Shown here piece by piece: positions 26,068 to 62,746 of a stretch of 64,000 bases of DNA. This DNA comes from Myxococcota bacterium (lineage in GTDB: Bacteria > Myxococcota > JAJVIH01): contig JAJVIH010000018.1 of the NCBI GenBank assembly GCA_022072125.1, forward strand, positions 27,868 to 91,867, in the 5' to 3' direction. The translations under genes and the position numbers were made by a program. The notes under the pieces were generated by a model that saw nothing but the letters and a program-made list of their open reading frames with translations, did no database searches and was not told the origin of the DNA. Numbering within the stretch: the first letter of the stretch is position 1; each line of letters begins with the position of its first letter.

Positions 26068-26193
26068 GGCAGGTCAATGGCGGGACAATACCCCCGGTTT
26101 TCCAGCGGGATGCGTCCCGCCAGGCGCGGGCCTCCCACGCGATCAATTCCATCCGCGGCGGGTGGGGAAACGGCCGGCTCCCTTCAACGCGGA

Positions 26194-27138: not shown

Positions 27139-27159
27139 GATCCAGACCAACCAGGAGCT

Positions 27160-27188
27160 TTTGACTCGCATCCGGCGGGCCGATAGTG
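27160..27188 (+). promoter_or_regulatory. Candidate sigma70-type promoter for ilvA
   Basis: TTGACT - 17 nt - TAGTGT, ~50 nt upstream of the ilvA ATG. Confidence 0.35.
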
Positions 27189-27239
27189 TGCGCCCGCCTT
27201 GGCGGCAGGTCCATAACCACCGCCGGAAAGTCCAGGTTC

Positions 27240-30186: not shown

Positions 30187-30334
30187 TCGCCATTCCCGCA
30201 ATCCCGGCGGCGCCGCGGTAAAATCGCTTCTCATTCATATGGCGGAGCGGCCCGCGCGGGAAGACTGTTCTTCCGGCTTGCGGGATTGGGCGTCCCTCGA
30301 CAAACAAGGGCGGATTCCGTTATCAAGGAGCGAT

Positions 30335-40416: not shown

Positions 40417-40434
40417 GCCGGTTGCGGGCGGCCG

Positions 40435-41460: not shown

Positions 41461-41633
41461 GGTGATTCTCCCGCCCCGCCGTGGGGCTCAAACCGGCGGG
41501 AGACATAGGACCATCGGGCGGTCCGGTCAAGCGGAAATCATGGCGGGGGGGACTTCAATCCCTCCGTGGATATCTCCATTGCTCTTGATGGGGTTCTGTG
41601 CCATCACTCCATCCATCAACCGGATGGGAAACC

Positions 41634-42683: not shown

Positions 42684-42684
42684 T

Positions 42685-43092
42685 ATGCAGGATCGTCCCT
42701 CACCCGATGTATTGCTGGAAGCGGTCGCGGGTTTTCTCGCGGGCGATGTTCAGGCGGCGATCACGGACAAGGGCCTCCAGTTCCGCGTGCTGATCGCCGC
42801 CAACCTGGCGGGCGTCGTCGCGCGGGAAATCCGCGAGATGGAGCCGCAGAGCCAGGCGGAAGCCGCGCGCCTGATGAAGCTGTTGGGCCGCGAGGGCGGA
42901 CCGCCCGCGGAACTGGGCGAACGCATCGGGGCCATCCGCGAGATGAACGGCGAACTGGCGCGGCTGATTCGCGGGCGCGGCCTGAACGCGGACCAACTGC
43001 GCGAAGCCATGGCGCACTGCAAGCAAACCTTGCAGGAGAAGTTGGAAGTGGCCAACCCGCGCTTTGACCTCAACCAACAGATTGAGCAGTAA
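42685..43092 (+). CDS. DUF6285-like small protein commonly paired with APH-family phosphotransferases
   Basis: Starts 2 nt after the kinase stop. Helical 135-aa protein. The family call is from memory of a conserved gene pairing. Confidence 0.4.
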   Translation: MQDRPSPDVLLEAVAGFLAGDVQAAITDKGLQFRVLIAANLAGVVAREIREMEPQSQAEAARLMKLLGREGGPPAELGERIGAIREMNGELARLIRGRGLNADQLREAMAHCKQTLQEKLEVANPRFDLNQQIEQ

Positions 43093-45289
43093 CCAGGCCT
43101 GACAGCGCCTCGCGTTGCCAGTTCTTGAGTTCATCCATGCTCAGGGCCTCGTAGGCTTCCTCCAGCGAGATGTCCCCATTCATGGCCTTGCCCAGGGCGT
43201 CCGCCACCAGCGAACGGTTGGGGCTGGTTTCGATGGCGTCGAAGGCCTCAAGCTGTTTGGCCTGCCTGGCCTGTTCGCGGCGGCGATCATAAGCGGGAGC
43301 CCACAGCTCGAAGAGGCTGATGCGCCCGCGCGAGCCCCGGAAATTGCAGCGTTCGCATCCCGCGCCGCGCCAGAACCGCGCCTCCGGCGGAGCGCCGCGC
43401 GGAAAGAACTCCTTCACCATGGCGGGATCGGGCGAGATCTGCGTTTTGCACCCGGGACACAACCTTCGCACCAGCCGCTGGCTGATCACGAACAGCAGGG
43501 AATCGGCGATCAGGCTGCGCATGCCGCCCATGTCTTCAAGCCGGTTGACCACGCCGCGCGCGTTGTTGACATGCAGCGAACTCAACACCAGGTGACCGGT
43601 CATGGCGGCTCGAAGAGCGGTTTGCGTGGTGGGTTCGTCGCGGATCTCGCCGACCAGGATGACATCTGGATCCTGCCGCAGGAAGGCGCGCAGGAACACA
43701 TCGAAGCTATTGCCAATGGCGGGATTCACCATGCTCTGCTGGATGCCGTCCACGTAGCGTTCAATCGGGTCCTCCGCGGTCATGATTTTCATTTCACGGG
43801 CCAGCAGATGCTGGAGCAGGGAATAAAGCGTGGTGGTTTTTCCGGAGCCGGTGGGTCCGGTGACCAGGATCAGGCCGTGGGGACTGTCGAGCAGGCGCAA
43901 CAGGTACGCCAGGCCGGCCGGGTCAATGCCCAAATCGCCCACCTGCAGCATCGCCGCCGCTGGATCCTGGATGCGCAGCGCCGCGTTTTCCCCCCATGCG
44001 GTGGGCTGGATGGAGACGCGGATTTCCCGTTCCCGCCCCATCAGTTTCTCGCGCATGCCGCCATCCTGCGGACGCCGCCGCTCGCTGATGTCCAGGTCCG
44101 ACTGAATCTTGATGGCGTTCATGAGCGGCCGCACCGTCGCCGGATTGAGCCGCGACGTGTTGAAGCGCGTCATGCGGCCATCCACCCGGAAGCGCAGGTC
44201 CACGTGGTGCTGAAAACTTTCGATGTGGATATCGCTGGCGCGCTGTTCGACCGCGGCGGACAGGATGGAGCGGAACATCGCGGGACCGCTGATGGCGTCA
44301 TCGCCCAAACGCTCGGCCAATGCATCGGGGAGCGGCAGTCCCGCGGAAATGGCGGCGCGGCATTCGGGGGCCAGGGGGCCGTACAGCGCCTCGGTAAGCA
44401 GACGGATATTGTACGGCGTGGTGATCACTGGAATGGCGAGACGCGCCCCGGCCATCTGTTTGACAAAATCCAGCGACTGGATATCCGGCATGCGTGAAAA
44501 AGCCGTGAACAACAGATCGCCGGTGAGACGCAGGGGAATGAAACCGTCAAACTGCCCGCTTCGCCGTTCAAACACCGGGCATAAGGACGTATCCGCCAGC
44601 GCCAGCAACTCGCTCAGCCAGACGTGAGGGGAGTTGGTCCAGGCGCAGGCCCACTCCATGACGGCCTGATCCTGCAGAAAGCGCCGGGTGGCGAAATCAA
44701 TCCACAGGTTGAGGTTCTGCAGGTTGTCATGGGTGATGGGCTCGCCAATCGCCCGCATGATTTCGGAACGCTGGGCGGCGGTCAGGGCGCCCCGGCGCAC
44801 CAGATAATCGGACAGCGCGGCGTTGCGCGGATGAACCTGCGCGCGCAGTTCTTCCAGACGCCTGACCGCTTCGGTGAAACGGCTGATGGTTTGCAACACC
44901 ACCGGCTGGGTGCGGACGCCATCGCCGGATTCGATGGGGCCGCCGGAAAATCCGGGTTTCGCCACGCCGAAAACCTGGTGTTCAAAAACCGAAACCGGCA
45001 AAAAGCCCCCGGCGGTCCAGGATTCCAGACCGCCGGGCGGCGCGGGATCGATCTCCACGAACAAATCGTTCCATGATAGCCCGAATACTCCCTTGGCGAT
45101 GCATACCGCGCGGCTCAGCTTGCCGGGCGTGACCGCGGGCAGTTGTTGCGCGGCCAGCGGCAGGTTGACCCCCGCCTGCCGGAGCGTCAGCAGATTTTCC
45201 CGTTCGTCCGGGGTGATGGCGCCCTGCGCAAGCAGAAACTCCACAAAGACCCAATCAAATTCATCATGAGACCGCTCTGGGATCAGCAT
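43070..45289 (-). CDS. GspE/PilB-family ATPase with ~350-aa N-terminal extension
   Basis: Walker A LILVTGPTGSGKTTTLYSLL, Walker B DVILVGEIRD, His box SSLHVNN, tetracysteine CPGCK...CERCNF. Start moved to MLIPERSHDEF; the 44 upstream codons are Arg-rich and look non-coding. Confidence 0.75.
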   Translation of the reverse strand: MLIPERSHDEFDWVFVEFLLAQGAITPDERENLLTLRQAGVNLPLAAQQLPAVTPGKLSRAVCIAKGVFGLSWNDLFVEIDPAPPGGLESWTAGGFLPVSVFEHQVFGVAKPGFSGGPIESGDGVRTQPVVLQTISRFTEAVRRLEELRAQVHPRNAALSDYLVRRGALTAAQRSEIMRAIGEPITHDNLQNLNLWIDFATRRFLQDQAVMEWACAWTNSPHVWLSELLALADTSLCPVFERRSGQFDGFIPLRLTGDLLFTAFSRMPDIQSLDFVKQMAGARLAIPVITTPYNIRLLTEALYGPLAPECRAAISAGLPLPDALAERLGDDAISGPAMFRSILSAAVEQRASDIHIESFQHHVDLRFRVDGRMTRFNTSRLNPATVRPLMNAIKIQSDLDISERRRPQDGGMREKLMGREREIRVSIQPTAWGENAALRIQDPAAAMLQVGDLGIDPAGLAYLLRLLDSPHGLILVTGPTGSGKTTTLYSLLQHLLAREMKIMTAEDPIERYVDGIQQSMVNPAIGNSFDVFLRAFLRQDPDVILVGEIRDEPTTQTALRAAMTGHLVLSSLHVNNARGVVNRLEDMGGMRSLIADSLLFVISQRLVRRLCPGCKTQISPDPAMVKEFFPRGAPPEARFWRGAGCERCNFRGSRGRISLFELWAPAYDRRREQARQAKQLEAFDAIETSPNRSLVADALGKAMNGDISLEEAYEALSMDELKNWQREALSGLVTAQSVG

Positions 45290-45324
45290 GGACGCCTCTG
45301 TGGTGCGGGGGGCCGTATCGCGGT

Positions 45325-46065
45325 TCAGTAAGGTTTTTCGCCCACGTAATTGCCGGGAGGAGCGTAGTTGCAGACGGCGTACCAGCGCCCGCTGCGAAAG
45401 CCTTCCAGGCCATTGGGGCATTCGACCATCACACAGCCCACTTCCGTGGTGTCACGCCACACCACCTGCGTATAATGGCCGCATTGCGCTCCCGCGCGGC
45501 ATTTGAGGGCATGATAATCGTAGTCCTTCACCTCTTCCGCCCACAGGGTCACCACGCGGGTGGGAGTCACCCTTTGGGTTCCGGCATACAGATTTTCGCC
45601 CGACTGCACCCCTGCCGGAGACATGGTGTTGGGGTTGTGTTTCCATTTGCACTCCCTTCCCCACGCCAGCGCCTTGGCTTCCATGTCCTTCGACCAGCGC
45701 AGCGGCCCGAGGGGGGGATTGGCGGGAGGATTGGGGCGATCCCGCCGCGCGGCGTTGTGGGCGTCAATCCATTCCTGCTGCTCCGGCGTCAGGCCCGGCG
45801 TGGGCGGATTTCCGGAGTCCGGGGCCGCCGTATCTGGAACACCGGTGTCCGGGCTCCCCGCATCGGCTGGCGGAACACCGGAATCCCTTCCTCCCGGATT
45901 GACCGGCGGCCCCGCCAAATCCGTCAGGCCGCTGTCGCCTGCTCCGCCATCCGCGCCGGTTGAACCGGCGCCGGTGAATCCGCCTTTGGCGGGCGTGTCT
46001 TCTCCGCCGCACGCCACGAATACGGGAACGGAAACGGCGAATAACAACAGGGAGATGCGGCGCAT
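45325..46065 (-). CDS. CAP/SCP/PR-1 domain lipoprotein with Gly/Asp/Pro-rich linker
   Basis: Start at MRRISLLLFAVSVPVFVACGGE (lipobox) with a GGAGG RBS 7 nt upstream. C-terminal CAP domain (HNAARR...GHYTQVVWRDTTEVGC...YAVCNYAPPGN). Confidence 0.7.
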   Translation of the reverse strand: MRRISLLLFAVSVPVFVACGGEDTPAKGGFTGAGSTGADGGAGDSGLTDLAGPPVNPGGRDSGVPPADAGSPDTGVPDTAAPDSGNPPTPGLTPEQQEWIDAHNAARRDRPNPPANPPLGPLRWSKDMEAKALAWGRECKWKHNPNTMSPAGVQSGENLYAGTQRVTPTRVVTLWAEEVKDYDYHALKCRAGAQCGHYTQVVWRDTTEVGCVMVECPNGLEGFRSGRWYAVCNYAPPGNYVGEKPY

Positions 46066-48326: not shown

Positions 48327-48551
48327 TCAGGAAACCTTGTAAACCTCCCCCGAAGGATCATCCGGAGCGCCTTCCGGAATATCCCGGGTGAAAGTGACGA
48401 ACGCCATGGCCGGACGCTTGGAGGTGTCCCGCATGGCGAAGTGGATCCCCTCAAAATTCCAGCCCTGGGAGACAAATTCGTTGACGATCTGCTCCAGGGT
48501 TTCATCGGTGACGGTGCTGGTTTCGACAAATTTGAATTTCAGCATGGTCAC
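48327..48551 (-). CDS. Small DUF4177-like protein
   Basis: 74-aa [42 protein letters not shown]. 4-nt overlap with the upstream cobA-hemD gene. Confidence 0.4.
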   Translation of the reverse strand: MTMLKFKFVETSTVTDETLEQIVNEFVSQGWNFEGIHFAMRDTSKRPAMAFVTFTRDIPEGAPDDPSGEVYKVS

Positions 48552-50095
48552 TCCTTGCGCCGCTGCACGGCGCGAACCAGGGCCTCGACCAATCCCTGGA
48601 GGGTGCTTGGATGGGCTTCGGCCGCCGGCTCAACCCCCAGTTCACGAAGGGTCTCGCTGGTGACCGGACCAATGGACACCGCCCGGATCGGCGCATCCTC
48701 GGGGTCATGACCCCGGCGCACAAGCAGGTCCATGAAATTGCGGGCCGTCGAGGAGGAGGTGAACAGCGCCCATGTGTGGGGATCATCCGCCGCCTGCTCA
48801 AAGGCGTCCAGATCAAACTCCGGCTCCACGTTCTGGTACAGCACCAGTTCGTGGACGTGATGGCCCGCCGCCTTCAGTCCTTCCGGAAGGGTGCGGCTCG
48901 CTTCCCGGGCCTGAAACAACCACAGATTGGCGGGGGATTGCAGCCGCCCGATCAATGCTTTCAACACCCCTTCGCCGCGGAAGTCCTCGCCGGGCAACAG
49001 GTCGGCGATCAGTCCCGTGTGTTCCTTGAGCGCGCGCGCGGTGGAGGGTCCCACCGCCGCGGTCAGGCAGCCCGCGAAGGCGCGAATATCCCTGCCCATG
49101 GCTTCCAGCAGTTCGGCGGTGCGGCGCGCGCCGTTGGGACTGGTCCACACCAGCACATCGCCGGGGCGGATGGCGTTCAGGGCCTGCTCCATGGCCTCGC
49201 GCGCGGGGATGGGCTGAATCTCGATGGCGGGCATGCGCAACACCTGGGCGCCCAGTTCCTCCACCATCCCCGCCAATTCGCTGGCCTGACCCGCCGCGCG
49301 GGTGATGATCACCCGCTGTCCAAACAATGGTTTGCCCGTGAACCAGTTCTCGAAACCCTCCACAGCCGCCACCGCGCCAATCACAATCATGGCGGGCGAG
49401 TCTATTCCGGCGCTTTCCATGCGCGCGGGAAGATCAGCGGCGGCGCACCGGAGTTGGCGTTGTCCGGGCTGGGTTCCCCGTTCCACGCAGGCCGCCGGAG
49501 TGGCGGGGTCCAGGCCGCCATCAATCAGTTCGCGCACGATATCGCCGCAGCGGGACACCCCCATGTACACGCACAATGTCGCCCGCAGCCGGGCCAACAG
49601 CCGCCAGTCCACCGCGCTGTCCTGCTTGGCGGGGTCTTCATGTCCGGTGACAAAGACCACCATCGAAGTCAGGTTGCGGTGGGTCACCGGAATGCCCGCG
49701 TACGCCGGGGCGGCCGCTCCGGAGGTGACCCCGGGAACCACCTCGCAATGCAGGCCCGCCGCGGTCAGGGCGATCATCTCCTCGCCGCCGCGCCCGAAGA
49801 CGAAAGGATCGCCGCCCTTGAGCCGCACCACGATCCGGTTGGTGCGCCCGTACTCGATCAACATGTCCGTGATGTCGTCCTGACCGGTTTTGAAGCGGCC
49901 CGCCGACTTGCCGGCGAAAACGCGGTCGCATTCCGGGGGCAGCAAATCCAGCAGCGCGGGGTGGACCAGGTGATCGTAGATGCAGACTTCCGCCGCGCCC
50001 AGCAGTTGCGCGCCGCGCAGGGTGATGAGGCCGGGATCGCCGGGCCCGGCCCCGACCAGGTATACCCCCGGAACAAATTTGCGGCGTTCGTTCAT
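48548..50095 (-). CDS. cobA: Bifunctional uroporphyrinogen-III C-methyltransferase / uroporphyrinogen-III synthase (CobA-HemD fusion)
   Basis: N-terminal SAM-MTase motifs [18 protein letters not shown]...[17 protein letters not shown]-terminal HemD-like half. Start moved to MNERRKF (GGAAG RBS); the upstream 83 codons are Arg/Ser-rich noncoding. Confidence 0.8.
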
Positions 50096-50216
50096 CTTCC
50101 GCGCACTATGCCGGAGCGGGGGCTTCTTGCAAGCGGACGCGCGGCGCGTTAATCGGCGGGGCGGGCAAGCCCTTGGGCGTGAACCGCCAGGAACAGCCCG
50201 TTCACAGGAAACCAGC

Positions 50217-51506
50217 ATGTCATTTCCCCCCGTCGAAGAACAGATGGAGTTGCTGCTGCGCGGAACCACCCATGTGCAGGTGGAGCAGGAACTGTGCGAG
50301 CGCCTGAAGGAAAGCCGCGAACAGAACCGTCCCCTGCGCGTCAAGGCCGGGTTTGATCCGACCGCGCCGGATTTGCACGTGGGCCATGTGGTCCTGCTCC
50401 AGAAGATGCGCCAGTTCCAGGACCTGGGTCATCAGGTGATTTTCCTGATCGGCGATTTCACCGGGCGTATCGGCGACCCGACCGGCCGCTCGGAAACCCG
50501 CCGCCAGCTTACGGAAGAGGAGGTCGCCGCCAACGCCGAAACCTACCGCCAGCAGGTGTTCAAGGTGCTGGACCCCGCCCGCACCACCGTGGATTTCAAC
50601 TCCCGGTGGATGAACGCCATGAAGCCGCCGGAAATGGTGCGGCTGGCCGCCTGTTACAGCGTGGCGCGCATGCTGGAGCGCGACGATTTCAAGAAACGCT
50701 TCCGGGATGGGCAGTCCATCAGCATCCATGAGTTTCTCTATCCGCTGGTGCAGGCCTACGATTCGGTGGCGCTTCAGGCGGACGTGGAATTGGGCGGCAA
50801 TGACCAGCTTTTCAACCTGCTGATGGGCCGGACCGTGCAGAAGGAATACGGACAGCGCCCGCAGATTGTCCTCACCACGCCGCTGCTCATCGGCACCGGC
50901 GGGCGGATGGCGGATGGAGTGATCACCGGCGACAAGATGAGCAAATCGCTCGGCAATTACATCGGAATCAACGAAGAACCCGATCAGATCTTCGGCAAGA
51001 CCATGTCCATCTCCGATGAACTGATGTGGGAGTATTTTGTCCTGCTGTCCCGCCGCTCGCTGGCGGAGATCGAAGAGATGAAGCAGTCGGTTGCACGGGG
51101 GGCCAATCCGCGCGACTTCAAGGCGGCGCTGGCCGGGGAGTTGGTCTCCCGCTTCCATGGGGAAGCGGCGGGCAAGGCCGCCCGGGAACGGTTCGACAAT
51201 CTGTTCCGCCAGAAACAGGCGCCCAGCGACATGCCCGTGGTGCGCGCCGCCGCCACGCCGGACGGCGTGCTGCTGGCCCGCCTGCTCAAGGACGCCGGAC
51301 TGACGGAATCCGCCGGGGAGGCGCGCCGCATGTTCCAGCAGGGCGCCGTGCGCATCAATGGCGAGAAGGCGGCGAATGAAAACCTGCGGCTGGCGCCGGG
51401 CGAATACGTGGTGCAGGTGGGCAAGCGCCGGTGGGCCAAAATCGTGGTGGAGCAGGATCCACCAGAGTCCCGCGCCGCGCCGGGAAGAGAGCCGCCGGAT
51501 GGTTGA
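50217..51506 (+). CDS. tyrS: Tyrosyl-tRNA synthetase (short bacterial form with S4 domain)
   Basis: HIGH (DLHVGH) and KMSKS motifs. C-terminal S4-like [14 protein letters not shown]. Start at MSFPPVEE. Confidence 0.85.
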
Positions 51507-51626
51507 GCCTTCGCGCCGTTTACATTGAACCGGGGGACCGATGTTGATACGATCCGGCCCTTGCCTGGCGGCGGGAGATCATTCCCGCGATCCGGGCCCC
51601 GCTGGCGCTTTAAGGAGATCATTTAT

Positions 51627-53567
51627 ATGAAGTTGACCGGTAAAATCCTGTATTTGACCGATGACCCGGCGTTGATCCAGCGGCAGTTGGAACCCGGAGC
51701 GCCCCAATTCCGTTATCGGGGCGAGCCCCTCGCCTTTGGCGTCAACACCGATGCGATGATCTCCGGACAGGCCTGCACCCTAGGCTATACTGGTGAAATT
51801 CTCGGACCTCATTTTTTAAGAAATTTCAAGGGCGTGGTGGATCTTGAAGCCATCAGAAAAGGCGGATTTGAAGTGATTGTGGGCGGCGACGCCTATGGCA
51901 CCGGCTCCAGCCGGGAAGTGGCGGTGGTCGCACACCAGGGGGCGGGGATCAAACTGGTGGCGGCGAAGAGCTTCCAACGCATTTTCCAGGAAAACATGGT
52001 TTATGGCGGCATGCCGTTCACCACGGATCTGTCCGTGCTCGATCGCCTGCTGGCCGGCGAGGACGTGGACCTGTCCGCCTTCACCCGCGAACTGCCGCCG
52101 TTTTTCCGTGCGGTGTCGCAATCCGGCGGGTTGCTGCCCTACGCCAACCGGCTGATCAGCGGAGAGGCGCGCCCGCCCGAATCGGCGCGTGCGGCCAGGC
52201 GTCCGCTCAACATCACGGAGAAAATCGTGGCGCGAAACGCGCTGGCGGGATCGCTGCCAGAGAACGCCTTTGGCCTCGACTCCGTTCGCCCGGGCGATCA
52301 GGTGCTGGCGCGTACGGATTTCCGCGGCGTCCACGAATATACGGGCGGCATGGTGGTCGCGCTCTATGAAGAGGCCTTCGGCAAGGCGCCGGTGAGCAAT
52401 CCGTCCAGCGTGGCGGCGTTTGAAGACCATTTCGTCCTGCTGGACCACGGAGCGGTGCCGGAGGATGTCCGCGCCTCCCGCCTGAAACCGGCCATGGATC
52501 TGACGAAGGAGATGCTGGAAGGCTGCGCGCGCATGGGCGTGAAGGTTCATGGCCCGCACCGCGATCTGCCTCCGGGGGTTTGCCACCGCCTGGTGGTCGA
52601 ACGCTACGCCCTGCCCGGAACGATCAACGTGCTGACCGACAGCCATACCCCGACAGCGGGCGTGCTCAACTGCCTGGCGTTCGGCGTGGGCTCGACCGCC
52701 ATGGCCTTCGCCATGCGCACCGGACTGATTCCGGTGACCGTGCCGAAAACCGTGCGCATCAACGTCACCGGGCGCGCGGGCAGCGTGGTGTCGCCCAAGG
52801 ATTTGATCCTGCACATCATCGGCGACCCCTACTTCCGCGAGGAACACTGGCGGGAGTCGCCCACCGATACCTGCGTGATCGAACTGGGCGGCCCGGGCTT
52901 GGAGCAATGGAACGTGGACGAGTTGTCGGTGCTGACCAACATGACGGTGGAAGGCGGGCTGATGACCGGCGTGGTCGAACCCTGCGCCCCCATCATCAGT
53001 TTCCTCAAGACCCAGCGCGGCCTGAGCGAGGAGCGGCTGGCGCCCCTGCTGGTCCGCCCGGACCCCGGCGCGGAATACGCCAGGGTCTGGAACCTGGACC
53101 TGGGCGAGGTGCCGGTGACCGTGGCCAGCCCCGGCGACTCCCGCAACCGGGTGGCGCTCGACAAGGCAGGAGACACGCCGGTGCATAATGTCGTGATCGC
53201 CTCCTGCACGGGGGGCTCGCTCGCCGACCTGCGCGCGGCCTTCCAGGTGCTGCGCGGACGAAAAATGGCTCCCACGGTGCGCATGACGGTGACGCCCTCC
53301 AGCCACGACGTGGCGATGGCGGCCGAGAAGGAAGGCATTCTGGAGTTTTTCCGCACGCTGGGCGCGGTGGTCACCGAACCGGGCTGCGGTTCGTGCATTG
53401 GCAACGGGCCGGGCATTCCCCGTCCTGGCGAGATCACCGCCAGCACCACCAACCGGAATTTTGACCGGCGCATGGGCGCTCCGGGCGATGTCTGGCTGGT
53501 CAGTCCGGCCGTGGCCGCCGCCAGCGCCATCACCGGACGGCTCACCGACCCGCGCTCGCTGGACTGA
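51627..53567 (+). CDS. Aconitase-superfamily hydratase with permuted domain order: LeuD-like swivel domain N-terminal to LeuC-like catalytic domains
   Basis: N-terminus GGFEVIVGGDAYGTGSSREVAVVAHQGAGIKLVAAKSFQRIF resembles LeuD (GCGSSRE...AESFARIF). Downstream VLTDSHTPTAGVLNCLAFGVGSTAMAF and CGSCIGNG resemble LeuC Fe-S ligand regions. AGGAG RBS 9 nt upstream of the ATG. Confidence 0.7.
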   Translation: MKLTGKILYLTDDPALIQRQLEPGAPQFRYRGEPLAFGVNTDAMISGQACTLGYTGEILGPHFLRNFKGVVDLEAIRKGGFEVIVGGDAYGTGSSREVAVVAHQGAGIKLVAAKSFQRIFQENMVYGGMPFTTDLSVLDRLLAGEDVDLSAFTRELPPFFRAVSQSGGLLPYANRLISGEARPPESARAARRPLNITEKIVARNALAGSLPENAFGLDSVRPGDQVLARTDFRGVHEYTGGMVVALYEEAFGKAPVSNPSSVAAFEDHFVLLDHGAVPEDVRASRLKPAMDLTKEMLEGCARMGVKVHGPHRDLPPGVCHRLVVERYALPGTINVLTDSHTPTAGVLNCLAFGVGSTAMAFAMRTGLIPVTVPKTVRINVTGRAGSVVSPKDLILHIIGDPYFREEHWRESPTDTCVIELGGPGLEQWNVDELSVLTNMTVEGGLMTGVVEPCAPIISFLKTQRGLSEERLAPLLVRPDPGAEYARVWNLDLGEVPVTVASPGDSRNRVALDKAGDTPVHNVVIASCTGGSLADLRAAFQVLRGRKMAPTVRMTVTPSSHDVAMAAEKEGILEFFRTLGAVVTEPGCGSCIGNGPGIPRPGEITASTTNRNFDRRMGAPGDVWLVSPAVAAASAITGRLTDPRSLD

Positions 53568-53608: not shown

Positions 53609-54076
53609 GTGACCTTGTATCCGCCAATCCAGCCATCCGCTTTCCGGCGCCGCGCTGCCGCCATCGGGGTTGCGATGGCCGTGGCGGTGCTGTCTGGCTG
53701 CGTGGACACGGAATCGCCGGTCATTGTGGAAACCACCCGGCTCACCGACACCTCCGACACGGTGGGTCCCTATGAGGTGCTGGCCAGCGTCCGGGACGAT
53801 CGCGGAATCCTGGAAGTCAACCTGTGGTGGGGGCCGGCCAGCGCGCCCCAGACCGGACAAGCCTTCACGAAAACCCCAATGTCCCAGGTGGCGGAAGGAA
53901 AATACCGGGGGTTAATCCCTTCGTCCGCGGACGGCGCCGCCGGTTTTCCGCCCGGCAGCACCATCCGCTATTTCGTGGAAGCGGTGGACAACGACAACAA
54001 CCGCACCCGCGATCCGCCAGAAGGCGCGTTCGCCTTCCGGGTATTGCCACCTCCCAACAAAGCTGTTAATCCGTGA
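53609..54076 (+). CDS. Hypothetical lipoprotein
   Basis: AIGVAMAVAVLSGCVDTE lipobox. No other motifs. Confidence 0.45.
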   Translation: MTLYPPIQPSAFRRRAAAIGVAMAVAVLSGCVDTESPVIVETTRLTDTSDTVGPYEVLASVRDDRGILEVNLWWGPASAPQTGQAFTKTPMSQVAEGKYRGLIPSSADGAAGFPPGSTIRYFVEAVDNDNNRTRDPPEGAFAFRVLPPPNKAVNP

Positions 54077-54115: not shown

Positions 54116-55183
54116 ATGGCGCAGAACAATGACGGCGCTCCACTGACCTACCGGTCGGCGGGGGTGGATATCCACAAGGGCGACGAGGTGGCGGACGCCG
54201 CCGGACGCCTGGCCCGATCCACGCTCACGCCCTGGGTGGTGTCTGGCGTGGGCGGATTCGCGGGTCTGTTCCGCTTTGATCCCGCCCGGTATCCCGAACC
54301 GGTGATGGCCGCCTGCACCGATGGCGTGGGCACCAAGCTGCTGGTGGCGCTGGCGGCGGGCCGGCACGACACCATTGGCGTTGATCTCGTGGCCATGAAT
54401 GTCAACGACCTGATCGTGTGCGGCGCCGAGCCTCTGGCCTTTCTCGATTATTTCGCCACCGGCGGCCTGGACGCCGCGCAGGCGGAGGCGGTGCTGACCG
54501 GTATCGCCGGGGGTTGCCGCCAGGCGGGCTGCGCGCTGATCGGCGGGGAAACAGCGGAAATGCCGGGCATGTATCCGCCGGGAAAATATGATCTGGCGGG
54601 TTTCGCGGTGGGGGTGGTCAACCGGCCGGACATCATCAATGGGTCCAGGGTTTCCGCCGGAGACACCATCATCGGGCTGCCCTCCAGCGGCCTGCATTCC
54701 AACGGTTATTCACTGGCGCGCAAAATCGTGTTTGAACGCCTGGGCCTGCAGGCCGGCTCCATTTGGTTTGACGGCAAGACCGCTGGCGAACTGCTGCTTG
54801 CCCCCACCCGCATTTACGTGCGCACGGTGCTGGAGCTGATCCGCAAGGTCCCCGTCCACGCCATGGCCCATATCACTGGCGGCGGATTGCCGGGCAACCT
54901 GATCCGCGCCTTTCCCCAAGGCTTGTCCGCAAGGGTTCGCCGCGGCGCCTGGCGTCCGCCGGAGATATTCCTTCGCCTGCAAGAGGCGGGATCGGTCCCT
55001 GCACCGGACCTGTGGGATACCTTCAACATGGGCATCGGATACTGCTTCGTGGTTCCCGCCGCCGCCGCGGACGCCGCAATCTCCGCCCTGTCCGGGCTGG
55101 GCGAGCAACCCATTCTGATTGGCGAGGTATTCGCCAGCCCGGGCGAGCCCCGGGTGGAGTTTGATCCGCCGCTGGGTCCATGA
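54116..55183 (+). CDS. purM: Phosphoribosylformylglycinamidine cyclo-ligase (AIR synthetase)
   Basis: LTYRSAGVDIHKGDE..., GGFAGLF, DGVGTKL, NVNDLIVCGAEPLAFLDY. Co-linear with PurM. Confidence 0.9.
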   Translation: MAQNNDGAPLTYRSAGVDIHKGDEVADAAGRLARSTLTPWVVSGVGGFAGLFRFDPARYPEPVMAACTDGVGTKLLVALAAGRHDTIGVDLVAMNVNDLIVCGAEPLAFLDYFATGGLDAAQAEAVLTGIAGGCRQAGCALIGGETAEMPGMYPPGKYDLAGFAVGVVNRPDIINGSRVSAGDTIIGLPSSGLHSNGYSLARKIVFERLGLQAGSIWFDGKTAGELLLAPTRIYVRTVLELIRKVPVHAMAHITGGGLPGNLIRAFPQGLSARVRRGAWRPPEIFLRLQEAGSVPAPDLWDTFNMGIGYCFVVPAAAADAAISALSGLGEQPILIGEVFASPGEPRVEFDPPLGP

Positions 55184-56103
55184 ATCCGTCGCGGTCCAGC
55201 AGATCAGGGGAACGGGGATGGGGCGGTCTGATGCGCCTGTGGCCGTGGCCCATTGGGCTGGTCCTTCTGTATTATACGATTCTCTACCGCCCCGGTTCGC
55301 TGGAATGGGAGCGCGTGCTGAACGATCTGGCGCCGGAAGTGCAGGCCGGAGACCTGGTGATTACCGCGCCGGTGCAATCCTTCCGCTCGATTGTCAATGT
55401 GCCCGATCTGCCGCTGATGGCCCCCATCCATGGCCAGTATTTCGACACCCGCGGCCTGCGGAAAATCTGGCAGGTGTCGGACCGCGGGGTCACTCCGGGG
55501 ATGATCCCCAATTCCATCAACCCGGCGGGACATGGGGGGTGGATGGTGACCGCGCATCCCTACGAAGGCAGGCGGGTCCGCGAACAGGGAAATCTGGTCA
55601 TCACGGAATTTGAGCCGCCCAAACACCGCCTGGGTGAACACCTGCGGGAACTCGTGGTGGAGGTGGAACAGTCCCCCGGCGGGCCCTGGAGCCAATGTCT
55701 GGAGTACAACGGCAAATACCATTGCGGGACGGCGCCCTGGCATTATGTGGGCGAGACGTTCATCCCCGTGCATGAACAGCAGACCCAATGCATCTGGGCG
55801 CATCCCTACGCGGGCCGGAACCTGCGGATCCGCCATCCGGAATGGCCCCTGAGCAAGCGGTTTTTCCTGTATACGATGTTCGGCGATCCGGCGACGCGCG
55901 GCGATATCGCCGCGCCGGTCCGCCTCACCATCCGGGTGGGGAATTACATCCGGCGGGAAATCCTGCATCACCCTTTTCCGGGAACCCGCGTCCATGTGCT
56001 GGAGATGCCGGAAGAAGAAACCCCGGCGTCCGCTCCGCTGATCATTGACGTATTCAGCGAGCGCGAAGGCAAGGCGCATTTCTGCTTCGCGCTGGAGAAC
56101 TGA
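55180..56103 (+). CDS. Hypothetical membrane-anchored protein (N-terminal TM, Cys/His-containing soluble domain)
   Basis: Probable start at MRLWPWPIGLVLLYYTIL (nt 55231). Overlaps the purM stop and the downstream GT-C gene, suggesting an operon. Confidence 0.45.
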   Translation: MNPSRSSRSGERGWGGLMRLWPWPIGLVLLYYTILYRPGSLEWERVLNDLAPEVQAGDLVITAPVQSFRSIVNVPDLPLMAPIHGQYFDTRGLRKIWQVSDRGVTPGMIPNSINPAGHGGWMVTAHPYEGRRVREQGNLVITEFEPPKHRLGEHLRELVVEVEQSPGGPWSQCLEYNGKYHCGTAPWHYVGETFIPVHEQQTQCIWAHPYAGRNLRIRHPEWPLSKRFFLYTMFGDPATRGDIAAPVRLTIRVGNYIRREILHHPFPGTRVHVLEMPEEETPASAPLIIDVFSEREGKAHFCFALEN

Positions 56104-57901
56104 ATTGCGCGCGCGCGGACTGGAAATCCTGCTGATCAGCGGACTGATATTCGCCTACGGGTGGTTTCATCCGTTTTTCCCCATATCCGCCAATCCCAAC
56201 GAGATCACCCGCTTTTACATGACCCGCGCCCTGGTCCAGCGCGGCGAACTGAAGATTGACGAGGAATTCGCCCGTTATGGCGTGTCGCTGGATCGCTCCC
56301 GCTACAACGGCCATTACTACAGTGACAAGGCGCCCGGGCTATCCCTGCTGTCGGTTCCGTTTTACTGGGCCTACGAACAGTGGCGCGGCAAGCCGGAAAC
56401 CTGGTCCATCCCCCCCTGGGAAGACGATGAACGCCTGGAGTTTTCCGCCCGCGCCTCGCTGAAGGAAGTGTCGCCCGCCATCCGCTTTCTCAAGTGGCCG
56501 GTGATTATCGTTCCTTCCATCCTGCTTTCGCTGATGGTGTTCGCCGCCCTCGCCGGACTGATTCAGTCGCGCGTGCTGGCGCTGTCCCTGACGCTGGCCT
56601 ACGGGCTGGGCACGGTGGCTTATTCCAACAGCCTCATCCTGTTCAGCCACCAACTCACGGCTGCGCTGCTGTTTGGCGCCTACCTGTGCCTGAGGCGGGG
56701 TCTGGATCGCGACAACCCCTGGTGGTTCGTCCCGGCGGGCGCCTGCGCGGGCATGACCCTGATGGTCGAATTTCCACCCGCGATTCCCATTTTCCTGATG
56801 GGCGTTTACGCCATCGCGGTGTTGAAGAAACGCTTCCTCCGCCTTCTGCCCTATCCGCTGTTCGCGGCGCCCTTCATCGCCGGGCTGCTCTATTACCACT
56901 ACCTGGCGTTCGATAACCCGTTCTCCACAGGCTACTCCCACTTGGAGGAGGAAACCTTCACCCAGGTCCACAATCAGGGACTGTTGGGCATCACCCTTCC
57001 AGATCACATCGCCTTCTTTGGCATGTTCTTCGCTCCCCAACGCGGCATCCTGGTGTTCAGCCCCATGCTGCTCTTCGCCATTCCGGGATTCGTGGAAATG
57101 AAACGGCGCCGGTCTGTTCATTTCTGGCCGGTGACGCTGGTGTCGCTGGCTTTCTTCTACATCGTCAGTTCCTACCCGGTCTGGCATGGCGGCGGATGTG
57201 TCGGCATGCGGCACCTGACTCCGCTGATGCCCTTCCTGATGATCCCCACGGCGCTGGGCGTCCAGCGCCTGGCGGGAAGATCCACCCCCTGGTGGGGACG
57301 CGCCGCCGGCGGATTCATGCTGGCCGGGTGCCTGCTGACCATTGTTTCCACCGTGCCATTCCCCCACGCGGCCCTGTTGTACCGGATTCCCTTCCGCGAT
57401 CTGGGCGGCGAACTCTGGAGGTTGGGCTTTTTGCCGCCCAGCGCCGTCTCCGCCATGGGCATGGATGGTTATTCATCCGGCCTCTGGTATCTGGCGGGCG
57501 CCGCTCTGTTGTGCCTGGCGATGTTGATCGCACTCACGCGCTGGATGAGCAGCCGGGAAACGGCGGGAAGCGTTCCTGAAAACGCCGGATGGATGGTCCT
57601 GATTGGTTCGCTGATCCTGCTGATCTGGTTTGTCTCCTTCCCGGATTTCCGCGCATATGATCGCTTCAACGACAGCCGGTTGATCATGCGGCAGTACCAT
57701 CCGCAGCACCGCAATGTGTACAGCCGCTTCAACTGGCCCCCCACGGATGCGGATCTGAAACAACCCGCGTACTGGAGGGCGCGCGGACGCGAACGCACCG
57801 CCGTGCTCGATAACGGCGGCGCGCTGGATTTTTTCACCCACGCCCGTCAACTCGTGGAAAGCCCCGCCACCGGAACACCCGCCTTCGCGCCCTCTCCGTA
57901 A
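56045..57901 (+). CDS. Polytopic membrane protein, probable GT-C fold glycosyltransferase (ArnT/PMT_2-like)
   Basis: About 12 TM helices. First periplasmic loop carries YYSDKAPGLS, reminiscent of the lipid-carrier-binding loop of ArnT/PMT-type enzymes. The real start may be the TTG at 56105, after the upstream gene's stop. Confidence 0.5.
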   Translation: MTYSASAKARRISASRWRTELRARGLEILLISGLIFAYGWFHPFFPISANPNEITRFYMTRALVQRGELKIDEEFARYGVSLDRSRYNGHYYSDKAPGLSLLSVPFYWAYEQWRGKPETWSIPPWEDDERLEFSARASLKEVSPAIRFLKWPVIIVPSILLSLMVFAALAGLIQSRVLALSLTLAYGLGTVAYSNSLILFSHQLTAALLFGAYLCLRRGLDRDNPWWFVPAGACAGMTLMVEFPPAIPIFLMGVYAIAVLKKRFLRLLPYPLFAAPFIAGLLYYHYLAFDNPFSTGYSHLEEETFTQVHNQGLLGITLPDHIAFFGMFFAPQRGILVFSPMLLFAIPGFVEMKRRRSVHFWPVTLVSLAFFYIVSSYPVWHGGGCVGMRHLTPLMPFLMIPTALGVQRLAGRSTPWWGRAAGGFMLAGCLLTIVSTVPFPHAALLYRIPFRDLGGELWRLGFLPPSAVSAMGMDGYSSGLWYLAGAALLCLAMLIALTRWMSSRETAGSVPENAGWMVLIGSLILLIWFVSFPDFRAYDRFNDSRLIMRQYHPQHRNVYSRFNWPPTDADLKQPAYWRARGRERTAVLDNGGALDFFTHARQLVESPATGTPAFAPSP

Positions 57902-57978
57902 ACATCACGGTTCTCACGACGCCCTGATTGAACGCCCCGCTCTTGCCACCCGGCGCGCCGCTCTGGCATGGTGATCCC

Positions 57979-59898
57979 ATGCTCCGGCTGACGTTGCATT
58001 TTGGCCTCTCCAACCAGCATTCCGTGGAATTTCAATCCGGCGAGGTGATGATCGGGCGCAAGCCCCATTGTTCCATCGCCATTGTGGACCCCCGTATCTC
58101 CGGCCAGCACGCCCGGCTGTACCTGCAAGGGTCTGACTGGATTTTTGAAGACCTGTTTTCCACCAATGGTTCGATGATCCACCGGTCGGGGCAGCGCACG
58201 GTGGTGGCTCCAGGGGCGCCTGGGCGGCAGAAAATCCTGACCGGCGACGAACTGCTGCTCGGCGATGCGGACACGCCCATCGTCATCCGGGTGGACGAAG
58301 CCGCCGCCGGCGAAACCCCGTCTCCGGCGCGTGAAACCGTGGTGGCGGTGCGCGCTCTCAAGCCTACGTTTGAACTGCCCCCCCGGGTTCGCGAGGACGG
58401 GGCCGCGCTGCGCGACCTGTGCCAGTTCATGGGCGAACAGGCGCGCACCTCCGAACTCGCCGATCAGTTCGTGGGGCTCTTTCGCTTTTTCCAGAAACGC
58501 TTCAGCGGGGATATCTGGTTTTACGCTGCGCTCCGCGATTTCCCCCAGGGCGAGTTCCGCAAGGCGTTCAGCCGGTCCTCCTCGGGCAAGGAGCCGGCGG
58601 ACGGCGCGCCGCCGTCCCTGCGCGAGCGGCTGCTGTCGGAGAAACAGGCCATCCTGCTCAAGGAGACCCGCGGCGCCCAGCAGTCCGAGCCGGCCGCCGC
58701 CAGCGGGGTGGACTCCATCATGGCCGCCCCATTGATGGACCACGCGGGGAAGGTATTCGGGCTGTTCCTGCTCAGCCGCCGCGGCAGGGAATTCGACGAG
58801 GCCGATCTTGCCCTGTTCGCCGCCGCCGCCGCCCATGCGGGATCGACCTTTGAAACCATCCGCCTGGTGGATGAATTGAAGGCCGCCCGCGAACAACTCT
58901 CCGCCAGCAACAAGACCCTTCTGCAGGATATCGCCAAATCCCGGAGCGCTCCCCTGCTGATTGGCGAGAGCCCCGCCATCCGCAAGGTGCTGAAGGCGTC
59001 GGACGCCGTGGCTGGGTCCGATTCCACCGTGCTCATCCAGGGGGAAACCGGCGTGGGCAAGGAGGTGCTGGCCCGGCATATTCATGGCCGGTCCGCCCGC
59101 GCCGATCGCTACTTCGCCGCGGTCAACTGCGGCGCGCTGACCGCCACCCTGCTGGAAAGCGAACTCTTCGGCCATGTCAAGGGCGCCTTCACCGGCGCCA
59201 CCAGCAACAAGAAGGGGTATTTCTCCATCGCCAATCACGGCACGCTGTTCCTGGATGAAATCGGCGAAATTCCCCTGCAGCTTCAGGTCAAGCTGCTGCG
59301 CGTGCTCCAGGAAGGCGAGTTCTGGCCGGTCGGCGCCGACAAGCCCGAGACCTGCGACGTGCGCATCCTCGCCGCCACCAATCGCGTGCTGGAAACCGAA
59401 GTCAAGGAAGGGCGCTTCCGCGAGGACCTGTATTTCCGCCTCAATGTCTTTCCGATTCGCGTACCGCCGCTGCGGGAAAGACAGGAGGACATTCCTTTGC
59501 TGGTCAACCACCTGCTGGAGCGCCTGCGCGAACGCCATCCCAACGCACCGCAAAAACTGACCGAGCGCGCCATGGCCTGTCTGTGCGCCTTCCCCTGGCC
59601 GGGAAATATCCGCCAGCTTTCCAACGAACTGGAACGCGCCTGCCTGCTCAGCGGCCACTCCACCCATATTGACGTGGACGCGCTGTCTCCCGAAATCGCC
59701 GGCGAAGACGACCCCGATGTGGTCACCGTGGACGGCACCGGGCGCGAAACCCTCAAGGAAACCATGCGCCGCCTGGAAAAGGGCGTCATCAAGCGGGCTC
59801 TCGACGAGCACCACAACAACAAGACCGCCACCGCCCGGGCGCTGGGCATTTCCCGGCAGGCCCTGCTGCTCAAGATCAACATGCTTGGCGTGGATTGA
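57979..59898 (+). CDS. Sigma54-dependent transcriptional activator with N-terminal FHA domain and GAF-like domain (FHA-GAF-AAA+-HTH)
   Basis: FHA core (VMIGRKPHCSIAIVDPRISGQHARL...GSTNGSMI). AAA+ sigma54-interaction domain (GETGVGKEV...GAFTGA...EGEFWPVG). C-terminal Fis-type HTH (TATARALGISRQALLLKI). The large - strand ORF 57847..60516 is its shadow. Confidence 0.85.
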   Translation: MLRLTLHFGLSNQHSVEFQSGEVMIGRKPHCSIAIVDPRISGQHARLYLQGSDWIFEDLFSTNGSMIHRSGQRTVVAPGAPGRQKILTGDELLLGDADTPIVIRVDEAAAGETPSPARETVVAVRALKPTFELPPRVREDGAALRDLCQFMGEQARTSELADQFVGLFRFFQKRFSGDIWFYAALRDFPQGEFRKAFSRSSSGKEPADGAPPSLRERLLSEKQAILLKETRGAQQSEPAAASGVDSIMAAPLMDHAGKVFGLFLLSRRGREFDEADLALFAAAAAHAGSTFETIRLVDELKAAREQLSASNKTLLQDIAKSRSAPLLIGESPAIRKVLKASDAVAGSDSTVLIQGETGVGKEVLARHIHGRSARADRYFAAVNCGALTATLLESELFGHVKGAFTGATSNKKGYFSIANHGTLFLDEIGEIPLQLQVKLLRVLQEGEFWPVGADKPETCDVRILAATNRVLETEVKEGRFREDLYFRLNVFPIRVPPLRERQEDIPLLVNHLLERLRERHPNAPQKLTERAMACLCAFPWPGNIRQLSNELERACLLSGHSTHIDVDALSPEIAGEDDPDVVTVDGTGRETLKETMRRLEKGVIKRALDEHHNNKTATARALGISRQALLLKINMLGVD

Positions 59899-61762: not shown

Positions 61763-62746
61763 ATGGACCTCGTGATTCCCCACCCGCGCGGACTGTACTG
61801 CCCGCCGGGAGATTTTTTCATTGACCCGCGCCGCGGCGTGCAGACCGCCGTGATCACCCACGCCCACTCCGACCATGTGGCGCCCGGAAGCGGCGGTTAT
61901 ATCTGTTCATCGCGTTGCGCCCCCCTGGTGCGCCAGCGCATTGGCGCCCGTTTCAACATCCGGCCCGTGGAATACGGAGAAAAATTCCGGCTGGGCGGAT
62001 GCTGGGTGTCGCTGCATCCCGCTGGACATATCCTGGGTTCGGCGCAGGTGCGCATCGAATGGCGGGACGAGGTCTGGGTGGTGTCGGGAGATTACAAACG
62101 CGATCCCGACCCATCCTGCGAGCCCTTTGAAGTGGTCGCCTGTGATGTCTTCATCACCGAAACCACCTTTGGTTCGCCGCTCTACCAATGGCGTCCTGGC
62201 GAGGAGATCGCCAGGGAAGTGCTGGCTTGGCGCGGGCAGGCGCGGGAGTGCGGGCGGAACTGCATTCTCTATTGTTATTCCCTGGGCAAGGCCCAGCGCC
62301 TGCTGGCCGAACTGGGGCGGCTGGACGCCGGCGTTGTGTATCTCCATGGCGCCCATCTGGCCCCCACCATCGCCTACCATGAGATGGGGATTCCCATGGC
62401 GAAATTCCAACTCGCCGGCGACGCCTCGAAACGTGAACTGATTCAGGGCGAACTGGTGCTGGCGCCGCCCAACGCGCGCGGAACCAAATGGGAGGCCAGC
62501 CTGGGCGAATGTGAAACCGCGTTCGCCTCCGGGTGGATGGCCCTCGCCAACGCCCGCCGCAACAAGGGCTACGACCGCGGCTTTGTCATCTCCGACCATG
62601 CAGACTGGAACTCGCTGCTGCGCACCATCCGCGAAACCGGCGCCCGGCGCGTCATCGCCATGCATGGCGACGCGGCGGCCCTGGTGCAAACCCTGCGCGA
62701 ACAGGGGTTGCAGGCGGAAGAACTGGCGGAAGCCCGCGCGGTCTGA
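61763..62746 (+). CDS. Ligase-associated DNA damage response exonuclease (metallo-beta-lactamase fold)
   Basis: MBL signature VITHAHSDHV, downstream His/Asp ligands (HPAGHILGS, SGDYKRD, ...HGD). Immediately followed (5-nt gap) by an ATP-dependent DNA ligase gene. Confidence 0.7.
   Translation: MDLVIPHPRGLYCPPGDFFIDPRRGVQTAVITHAHSDHVAPGSGGYICSSRCAPLVRQRIGARFNIRPVEYGEKFRLGGCWVSLHPAGHILGSAQVRIEWRDEVWVVSGDYKRDPDPSCEPFEVVACDVFITETTFGSPLYQWRPGEEIAREVLAWRGQARECGRNCILYCYSLGKAQRLLAELGRLDAGVVYLHGAHLAPTIAYHEMGIPMAKFQLAGDASKRELIQGELVLAPPNARGTKWEASLGECETAFASGWMALANARRNKGYDRGFVISDHADWNSLLRTIRETGARRVIAMHGDAAALVQTLREQGLQAEELAEARAV

Follow-up and report, generated by a model that had tools for sequence, protein, structure and literature searches.

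The window analysed here is a stretch of 64,000 nucleotides from a Myxococcota bacterium (assembly GCA_022072125.1, contig JAJVIH010000018.1). At positions 51627-53567 (+) it carries the coding sequence of a 646-residue protein of the aconitase superfamily, in which the swivel domain stands ahead of the catalytic domains, with a TGA stop codon at 53565-53567. The full open reading frame (ORF) spans 51525-53567 (+), and translation from the ATG at 51627 gives the 646 residues followed by TGA, a product identical to a database protein (P0001). We place the start at this ATG, and not at an upstream TTG (51525), because a Shine-Dalgarno site, AAGGAG, can be read directly 9 nt before it (51612-51617, +), and because the N-terminus MKLTG..L.LT.DP is kept in all homologues.

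Membership of the superfamily follows from significant matches to both the swivel and the catalytic models of Pfam, namely Aconitase_C (PF00694) at residues 83-128 (46 bits against a cutoff of 22.8) and Aconitase (PF00330) at residues 229-637 (261.6 bits against 28.7). A sequence search of the PDB related the N-terminal third to the LeuD/HacB small subunits of M. jannaschii (3vba, 2pkp), and residues 212-645 to the LeuC/HacA large subunits of the same organism (4nqy/4kp1, E 2e-64; 4kp2, E 6e-60). The Pfam and PDB searches thus agree with the first-pass annotation, made from the letters alone, which had described a LeuD-like swivel ahead of LeuC-like domains in one chain of 646 residues. Domain 4, the LeuD-like swivel, occupies residues 1-185 (51627-52181, +) and is supported by PF00694, the 3vba/2pkp matches and Foldseek matches to LeuD structures. 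An interdomain linker follows at residues ~180-195 (EARPPESARAARRPLN; 52164-52211, +), which has no secondary structure and is the least confident block of the AlphaFold2 (AF2) model. The remainder, residues 196-646 (52212-53564, +), is a LeuC/HacA-like catalytic module of domains 1-3, supported by PF00330, the 4nqy/4kp1/4kp2 matches and Foldseek.

Built from 50 aligned swivel-first proteins, the AF2 model forms one compact globule with a mean pLDDT of 94.9 and a pTM of 0.94, and its only soft spot lies at linker residues 181-190 (pLDDT 76). Foldseek comparisons normalised to the target gave TM-scores of 0.92 for M. jannaschii HacA and 0.89 for M. jannaschii LeuC. The best fit to the whole chain was AcnB (TM 0.74), because this is the sole solved [4Fe-4S] structure among the matches to have the swivel-first order. 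Neither Pfam nor the AF2 model gives a HEAT or other interaction domain, and the absence of an AcnB-type HEAT domain, as first annotated, holds: the chain opens with the swivel domain.

All 26 NCBIfam matches fall under their curated cutoffs, the best being PRK00402 (304 bits against 385). The LeuC and LeuD models considered were TIGR00170, TIGR02083, TIGR02086, PRK05478, TIGR02084 and TIGR02087; scores under cutoff were seen for LeuC with TIGR02086 (289.8 against 410), TIGR02083 (242 against 611) and TIGR00170 (172.8 against 560), and for LeuD with TIGR02087 (54.3 against 109) and TIGR02084 (44 against 246). The same applies to the homoaconitase models hacA_fam (277.9 against 385.7), HacA_Meth (226.7 against 550) and HacB (40-42 against 230), and to the aconitase models PRK07229 (286 against 612), aconitase_mito (127.6 against 825) and AcnA (96 against 686). 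AcnB (TIGR00117) reached 107.5 bits against a cutoff of 1287, and the AcnD model was likewise far under its cutoff. Names in the databases are generic, either 'aconitase family protein' or '3-isopropylmalate dehydratase'. A 2021 review of the superfamily recognises eight subfamilies and gives the domain order 4-1-2-3 for AcnB, AcnX type I and, as stated there, fungal isopropylmalate isomerase (IPMI); a bacterial family of LeuD+LeuC type with this order is not listed (PMC8184944). Our literature search found no characterised fusion of LeuD followed by LeuC. The suggestion that this may be a distinct and poorly characterised subfamily is therefore supported, since the hidden Markov model search against aconitase subfamilies returned no standard, already named group and the review lacks such a family. 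We conclude that this is a real subfamily, named by neither curated model nor review.

A family of swivel-first proteins

The layout is not a rare one: the window protein belongs to a large family, some members of which have recognisable roles. We refer to this LeuDC-type family as SF (swivel-first), a label of our own, and define it by a single chain of ~620-690 residues with PF00694 before PF00330, full-length colinearity, a loop Cys replacing a Leu of LeuD, and a sister position in both domain trees, all of which apply to the window protein. The derived loop Cys is carried by most swivel-first proteins, at the place where E. coli LeuD has the Leu of 'FL'.

In a large protein database more than 120 full-length homologues have 66-71% identity and the same domain order, one of them from Plesiocystis pacifica. 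A scan of GTDB species genomes gave 255 relatives, and the best 80 of these include Nannocystis exedens, N. bainbridge, Enhygromyxa salina, Paraliomyxa miuraensis and many metagenome-assembled genomes (MAGs) of aquatic and soil Myxococcota. The 120 homologues that represent this Nannocystaceae-type clade are 64-100% identical to one another (median 74%), and 281 of the 646 positions are fixed (in at least 118 of the 120). The clade forms one full-length 50%-identity cluster in a HMMER scan of 1.84 billion representatives, where it is followed, after a gap, by dozens of colinear full-length proteins of 31-42% identity in swivel-first order. By score, relatives in the database number in the thousands, and full-length colinear members make up dozens of 50%-identity clusters. 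A profile of the 31-42%-identity relatives led to a second large clade, S2, with members in Sandaracinus amylolyticus, Sorangium, Polyangiaceae and the acidobacterium Pyrinomonas, while tblastn added further SF members on megaplasmids of Paraburkholderia, Caballeronia, Roseomonas, Microvirga and Streptomyces. Swivel-first architecture therefore defines a large, old family.

S2 occurs in Polyangiales-type Myxococcota and in Acidobacteriota. The S2 genes inspected lie at 10001-~11990 of the loci from Sandaracinus amylolyticus (L091), Sorangium sp. (L092) and Pyrinomonas methylaliphatogenes (L093); their products are ~40% identical to the window protein, have the loop STDEITPGWVC(Y/F)YYDETLG, and group with the branch holding the isocitrate/isopropylmalate dehydrogenase (Iso_dh)-fused P0129, P0143 and P0146. 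A large subunit without swivel domain, P0151 (422 aa), nests within the SF clade in the catalytic-domain tree, which suggests that unfused, split versions of the lineage exist. Twelve of the MAG records (L022, L028, L044, L056, L063, L066, L071, L076, L079, L008, L077 and L078) are titled Klebsiella pneumoniae, Enterobacteriaceae, Enterobacterales or Alphaproteobacteria; their genes are 64-71% identical to Nannocystaceae orthologues, and the titles are probably wrong taxonomy labels.

Trees were built by neighbour joining (NJ) from distances only, with 200 bootstraps using capped distances. In the NJ tree of the catalytic domains the SF proteins, including the window clade, stand apart from archaeal and bacterial LeuC and from LeuC-LeuD fusions of normal order, and also from mini-aconitases, AcnB, mitochondrial-type aconitase and AcnA. 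Only SF proteins made up the sister of the clade in 167 of the 200 bootstrap trees of the catalytic domains and in 191 of the 200 of the swivel domain; AcnB by itself took this position in at most 2 of 200. The first-pass annotation had called the order AcnB-like, and the order itself is indeed that of AcnB, but kinship is not, as the phylogeny places both domains with swivel-first LeuDC-type proteins. Inheritance of the permutation from AcnB is ruled out by both domain trees. On these comparisons the swivel-first order is convergent with that of AcnB and goes back to the fusion of a LeuD-like gene ahead of a LeuC-like gene.

Active-site residues and the specificity loop

Alignment to pig mitochondrial aconitase (mAcn) shows that counterparts of D100/H101, H147, D165/S166/H167, N258/E262, C358/C421/C424, N446/R447/R452 and S642/S643/R644 are all present. 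Across 50 swivel-first sequences most catalytic positions are invariant, with the N258, N446 and S643 counterparts at least 90% conserved, and across 120 close homologues the catalytic positions that were checked are fixed. In the swivel domain, the GSSRE motif (51903-51917, +) provides Ser94, Ser95 and Arg96 in place of mAcn Ser642, Ser643 and Arg644, with Ser94 corresponding to the catalytic base Ser642. In the catalytic module we see His320 (mAcn His147), directly followed by the clade-specific invariant Arg321 (52584-52589, +), then Asp338-Ser339-His340 (mAcn Asp165/Ser166/His167; 52638-52646, +). The first [4Fe-4S] ligand is Cys527 (mAcn Cys358; 53205-53207, +), and the second and third are in Cys587-Gly-Ser-Cys590 (mAcn Cys421/Cys424; 53385-53396, +). 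Finally, NRNFDRR (53451-53471, +) contains Asn609, Arg610 and Arg615, which align with mAcn Asn446, Arg447 and Arg452. The three Cys ligands and the Ser/Arg set, which had been singled out for checking, are thus intact.

The protein lacks the substrate determinants of aconitase, the loop Arg of homoaconitase and the hydrophobic loop of IPMI. The loop at residues 40-62 (NTDAMISGQACTLGYTGEILGPH; 51744-51812, +) stands in place of the YLV(Y)/YLRT loop of LeuD/HacB, and A49-C50-T51, G53 and Y54 within it show no variation among 120 homologues. The hydrophobic loop of IPMI-type enzymes (archaeal YLV(Y/M), bacterial FL(K/Q)) is replaced by SG(Q/A)ACTLGYTGE, and Arg26 of the homoaconitase loop YLRT, which binds the distal carboxylate, corresponds to Thr51. 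Gly53, invariant in the clade, aligns with aconitase Arg580; mAcn, AcnA and AcnB all have Arg in this column, as do two of three mini-aconitases. Aconitase Gln72 is replaced by His236, the first residue of H236-E237-Y238-T239 (52332-52343, +), again fixed in 120 of 120 homologues. The clade version of the loop, NTDAMISG(A/Q)ACTLGYTGEILGP, is two residues longer than in other swivel-first proteins and absolutely fixed. Arg614, directly before Arg615, is clade-specific, as nearly all compared relatives have Gly there; it was found in all 120 homologues, as were Arg321 and the loop ACT. The unique fixed signatures of the clade are NTDAMISG.ACTLGYTGE, GVCHR and NRNFDRRMG.

Two assignments were rejected on these grounds. 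Canonical aconitase does not fit, with His236 at the Gln72 position, Gly53 in the Arg580 column and real aconitases encoded beside the gene; nor does methanogen-type homoaconitase, given that the YLRT loop Arg is Thr51 and that the window encodes asd.

Genomic settings of the swivel-first genes

In the window the gene is flanked by tyrS (378 bits, TIGR00234) and purM (412 bits, TIGR00878), as first annotated, and no leu, lys or tricarboxylic acid (TCA) cycle genes were found among the window ORFs scanned, which also agrees with the earlier description. We then have 80 genome loci and 80 metagenome loci, covering 10 kb around the gene, as a view of the context in relatives. None of the 160 has the neighbours seen in the window, so the tyrS/purM setting, although real in this genome, is incidental and the gene is solitary. 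The commonest neighbour family occurs in only 12 of the 80 loci, and recurrent neighbours (aldehyde dehydrogenase, a Bax1-I membrane protein and two families without a Pfam match) are functionally unrelated; neighbourhood was accordingly dropped as a clue to function. An HMGL-type synthase (leuA) or Iso_dh-type gene (leuB) was found within 10 kb in 0 of 160 loci. Genes of the S2 clade also stand alone in Sandaracinus, Sorangium and Pyrinomonas.

Searching positions 50900-52000 against Rfam gave nothing at E ≤1, and the upstream regions hold only promoter-like boxes near the ATG. A shared box, CCATCTTG(T/A)G(A/T)(A/C)CAT, lies ~35-45 nt before the ATG in L001, L007, L013, L025, L027, L031, L037, L042, L050, L051, L053 and L070, and in L001 it forms the inverted repeat TGTTCAC-N13-GTGAACA. 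In many loci a -10-like box is only ~10-15 nt before the ATG, implying very short leaders.

Canonical aconitase genes were seen close to the swivel-first gene in a few loci. An AcnA gene (1296 bits against a cutoff of 945) lies 46 bp downstream in L071, and an AcnB gene ~200 bp downstream in L154. In L047 a mitochondrial-type aconitase (1107 bits against 825) is encoded at a distance of 6 kb, with a similar aconitase-family gene near the L036 copy (6-8 kb for the two loci), and AcnA is 6 kb from a 41%-identical relative in L081. As L071 (7704-12338) and L154 (4258-8959) are syntenic, each with the permuted gene, the aconitase gene and then a large DGDGYG/CDD-repeat protein on the opposite strand, they represent one ancestral event, which looks like the in-place swap of one aconitase type for another. 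Terminator-like hairpins follow the swivel-first gene in both loci and acnB has its own promoter-like site, making co-transcription doubtful, and operonic coupling to acnA or acnB was dropped for the same hairpins. This leaves two or three independent events of proximity against ~0.3 expected, by a rough estimate over ~1.8 Mb of flanks, and we take it as no more than a weak hint. That the window protein is itself the cell's aconitase is ruled out, because three lineages have AcnA, AcnB or the mitochondrial type next to the gene and because the protein lacks both aconitase determinants.

Other SF members have more informative surroundings. At 6667-12375 of L086, a LeuA-like synthase, an SF gene, an Iso_dh gene and then an aminotransferase lie inside a polyketide synthase/nonribosomal peptide synthetase (PKS/NRPS) cluster, and a module of LeuA-like, SF and Iso_dh genes lies inside such a cluster at 5689-9957 of L176, from the Streptomyces sp. 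KN37 plasmid (NZ_CP139046.1). These modules are likely homologation cassettes for non-proteinogenic building blocks. P0129 (988 aa; L084, 10001-12967) is a natural triple fusion of Iso_dh, swivel and catalytic domains, in a cluster that also encodes an AMP-ligase, acyl carrier protein, KAS III, electron-transfer flavoprotein, acyl-CoA dehydrogenases, an HMGL-like synthase and a thiamine pyrophosphate enzyme. A homocitrate-synthase-like gene lies two genes upstream of SF in L087 and L088. In Paraburkholderia terrae (plasmid pPT365; L174, 1101-8932) the SF gene is accompanied by a LysR regulator, an HMG-CoA-lyase-like gene, a CaiB/BaiF CoA-transferase, HppD and an MFS transporter, and in Roseomonas mucosa (plasmid p1; L175, 5784-8983) a CoA-transferase gene overlaps the SF gene by 4 nt. 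The operons of L174 and L175 suggest that an unsaturated dicarboxylate is hydrated, activated with CoA and cleaved by a lyase. By analogy with the known itaconate and citramalyl-CoA pathways, the proteobacterial SF operons would resemble a catabolism of citraconate/citramalate type.

Elsewhere around the window gene, a 155-aa ORF (53609-54076, +) between it and purM encodes a lipoprotein-like product with a signal peptide ending in ...LSGC, and a 307-aa ORF and a 618-aa multi-pass membrane protein follow purM (55180-57901, +); none of the three has a Pfam match. Divergent from tyrS is a fused uroporphyrinogen-III C-methyltransferase (TP_methylase) and uroporphyrinogen-III synthase (HemD) at 48548-50344 (-), whose longest ORF has a ~90-residue N-terminal extension rich in Arg, Ser and Cys that is probably untranslated. 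Further afield we see a tryptophanase-family lyase (2654-4021; 681 bits to PRK13238), threonine synthase with a threonine ammonia-lyase that passes two IlvA-type equivalog models (24655-28505), the SthA transhydrogenase (30158-31768), asd flanked by two PilB/GspE-type ATPases (38596-45421), a sigma-54 activator with a ~260-residue N-terminal region ahead of its AAA+ domain (57928-59898), and a ligase-associated DNA-damage exonuclease (61763-62746).

Probable function and comparison with known systems

As the machinery is strictly conserved, it can be inferred securely that the protein carries out Fe-S-dependent dehydration and rehydration of a 2-hydroxy-carboxylate. It would be a catalytically competent, single-chain [4Fe-4S] hydro-lyase/isomerase of the LeuCD/HacAB branch with domain 4 fused N-terminally to domains 1-3, its cluster held by C527, C587 and C590. 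A 2-hydroxy-di- or tricarboxylic acid would bind to the unique iron through its hydroxyl and one carboxylate, Ser94 in the swivel would abstract a proton, and the enoate intermediate would flip and be rehydrated, or else the reaction would end at hydration or dehydration. The substrate would most likely be a 2-substituted malate or the matching substituted maleate, and not citrate/isocitrate. We consider it probable that this is an SF-type hydro-lyase of 2-substituted malate or maleate whose substrate is non-canonical and probably polar. Because the ACTLGYTGE loop is small and polar, and because the extra invariant R321 and R614 flank catalytic residues, we lean towards a side chain that may be small or polar/anionic rather than the isopropyl of the leucine pathway. 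A solitary and very strongly conserved gene in Nannocystaceae-type Myxococcota suggests a place in primary metabolism. It is conceivable, and we put this forward tentatively, that in the Nannocystaceae-type clade and perhaps in S2 the enzyme performs a hydro-lyase step of primary metabolism on a substrate that no characterised aconitase-superfamily enzyme handles, for example a malate with a carboxy or other anionic substituent that Arg321/Arg614 and the ACTLGYTGE loop would recognise.

Several points weigh against a non-canonical substrate of this kind. The polar or anionic leaning is read from sequence, on the presumption that R321 and R614 face the active site. The best sequence and structure matches are the large subunits of IPMI and homoaconitase (HACN), strict monophyly of SF is weak (75 of 200 NJ bootstraps) because a few very divergent members shift position, and the clade has no conserved gene neighbour that would link it to a pathway. 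An ordinary role in the leucine pathway is possible.

In that case the protein would be a housekeeping isopropylmalate (and citramalate) isomerase, a fused LeuDC that has taken over from canonical leuC and leuD and has unlinked leuA and leuB as its partners; we think this rather unlikely, though it is the alternative to be taken most seriously. Its closest characterised relatives by sequence and fold are subunits of IPMI and HACN, it shares His at the Gln72 position with E. coli LeuC and several archaeal-type LeuC relatives, and SF relatives operate with LeuA-like and LeuB-like enzymes. Strong conservation and a solitary location would suit a housekeeping gene, the threonine ammonia-lyase of the window is compatible with branched-chain amino acid (BCAA) biosynthesis, and canonical leuC/leuD were found 0 times in 2.1 Mb of host DNA, though only ~0.2 would be expected by chance. 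Against this, the protein falls under every LeuC and LeuD equivalog and subfamily cutoff, its loop is invariably ACTLGYTGE in place of the hydrophobic YLV/FLK, two extra invariant arginines would be unexpected with a hydrophobic substrate, and leuA and leuB are absent within 10 kb from all 160 loci. BCAA auxotrophy has moreover been reported for many myxobacteria (PMC10196010, PMC12919014).

It is less plausible still that the protein is an auxiliary tricarboxylate enzyme beside a canonical aconitase, whether an isozyme, a 2-methyl-cis-aconitate or homoaconitate hydratase, or an enzyme with an AcnB-like role where the main enzyme is AcnA or mitochondrial-type. The 4-1-2-3 order and the whole-chain structural match are those of AcnB, the extra invariant arginines could bind a third carboxylate, and aconitase genes lie near the gene in L071, L154 and L047/L036, and near the relative in L081, more often than chance would give. 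However, His, Gly and Thr replace the aconitase Gln72, the Arg580 column and the homoaconitase loop Arg, in the trees each domain falls among the LeuDC-type SF proteins and groups with no aconitase, and the L071/L154 pair counts as a single event with terminator-like hairpins in between. A non-catalytic or moonlighting role, such as that of a regulator which senses Fe-S and binds RNA or protein, as IRP1 and apo-AcnB do, has a precedent in the established moonlighting of IRP1, AcnA and AcnB and would suit a solitary gene, but it is highly improbable when catalytic and cluster residues are strictly conserved in 120 homologues and the loop is fixed, pointing to selection on catalysis, and when the chain has neither a HEAT domain nor any other interaction domain.

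The aconitase superfamily is a textbook example of how enzymes are recruited and their domains rearranged, and a swivel-first layout is not shocking in a superfamily prone to domain shuffling. What the present data add is a large extra family in which a LeuD-like domain precedes a LeuC-like module. It arose independently of AcnB and is used in no fewer than three settings, which are the homologation of 2-oxoacids for natural products, catabolic operons with a CoA-transferase, and conserved genes standing alone in Myxococcota and Acidobacteriota. Labels such as '3-isopropylmalate dehydratase large subunit' are misleading here and can distort metabolic reconstructions, including predictions of leucine auxotrophy. 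The LeuA-like/SF/Iso_dh triplet can serve as a genome-mining marker of homologated building blocks, and in the myxobacterial clade an orphan enzyme, well defined and highly conserved, is available in hosts that can be cultured (Nannocystis, Enhygromyxa). If the enzyme does act on a novel substrate, it would stand for a ninth functional subfamily, one whose 4-1-2-3 architecture evolved independently; if it is instead the missing IPMI, then the BCAA auxotrophy predicted from the genomes of these myxobacteria would be an annotation artefact.

Of the known systems, LeuCD/HacAB of M. jannaschii (MJ0499/MJ1277 and MJ1003/MJ1271; 4kp1, 4nqy, 4kp2, 3vba, 2pkp) are closest to the window protein by sequence (E 2e-64) and by fold. 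They are alike in the catalytic residues, the three Cys ligands, GSSRE and His at the Gln72 position, but LeuCD/HacAB are two-gene heterodimers, whereas the window protein is one chain with the small-subunit part first. Its loop ACTLGYTGE is also two residues longer than YLV(Y)/YLRT, it has the extra Arg321 and Arg614, and it lies under all curated cutoffs and outside any leu or lys gene context. AcnB of E. coli (1l5j) has the same 4-1-2-3 order, and its TM-score of 0.74 is normalised to the query over 707 aligned columns; identity is only 21%, and the window protein lacks the HEAT-like domain, the 'SQD' motif (Gln) and the loop Arg of AcnB.

Mini-aconitases (PRK07229/TIGR01342, ~650 aa) are likewise single-chain fusions of LeuC-like and LeuD-like parts, and the window protein scores 286 bits against their model, a moderate similarity well short of the 612-bit cutoff, and their order is the opposite, 1-2-3-4. 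Of three mini-aconitases examined, two carry the Gln72-type QD and the Arg580-type loop Arg, unlike the window protein. Mini-aconitases form a clade of their own with mAcn and AcnA in 174 of 200 bootstraps in a run that gave a numerical warning. AcnX type I (7cnq) shares the single-chain order 4-linker-1-2-3 (PMC8184944) and is a weak structural match (TM 0.47), but with ~14% identity, the Pfam families PF04412/PF01989, a [2Fe-2S] cluster and other active-site residues it is no close relative. A further likeness is to the other SF proteins (P0125-P0186, the S2 clade and the plasmid genes of Paraburkholderia, Roseomonas and Streptomyces), which are ~620-690 aa long, colinear over the whole chain and 30-42% identical. 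Many of these reside in LeuA-like/Iso_dh modules or CoA-transferase/lyase operons and have aromatic or hydrophobic loops (WVCYYYD, RYCLY and similar), whereas the window clade is solitary, sits on its own long branch and bears unique fixed signatures.

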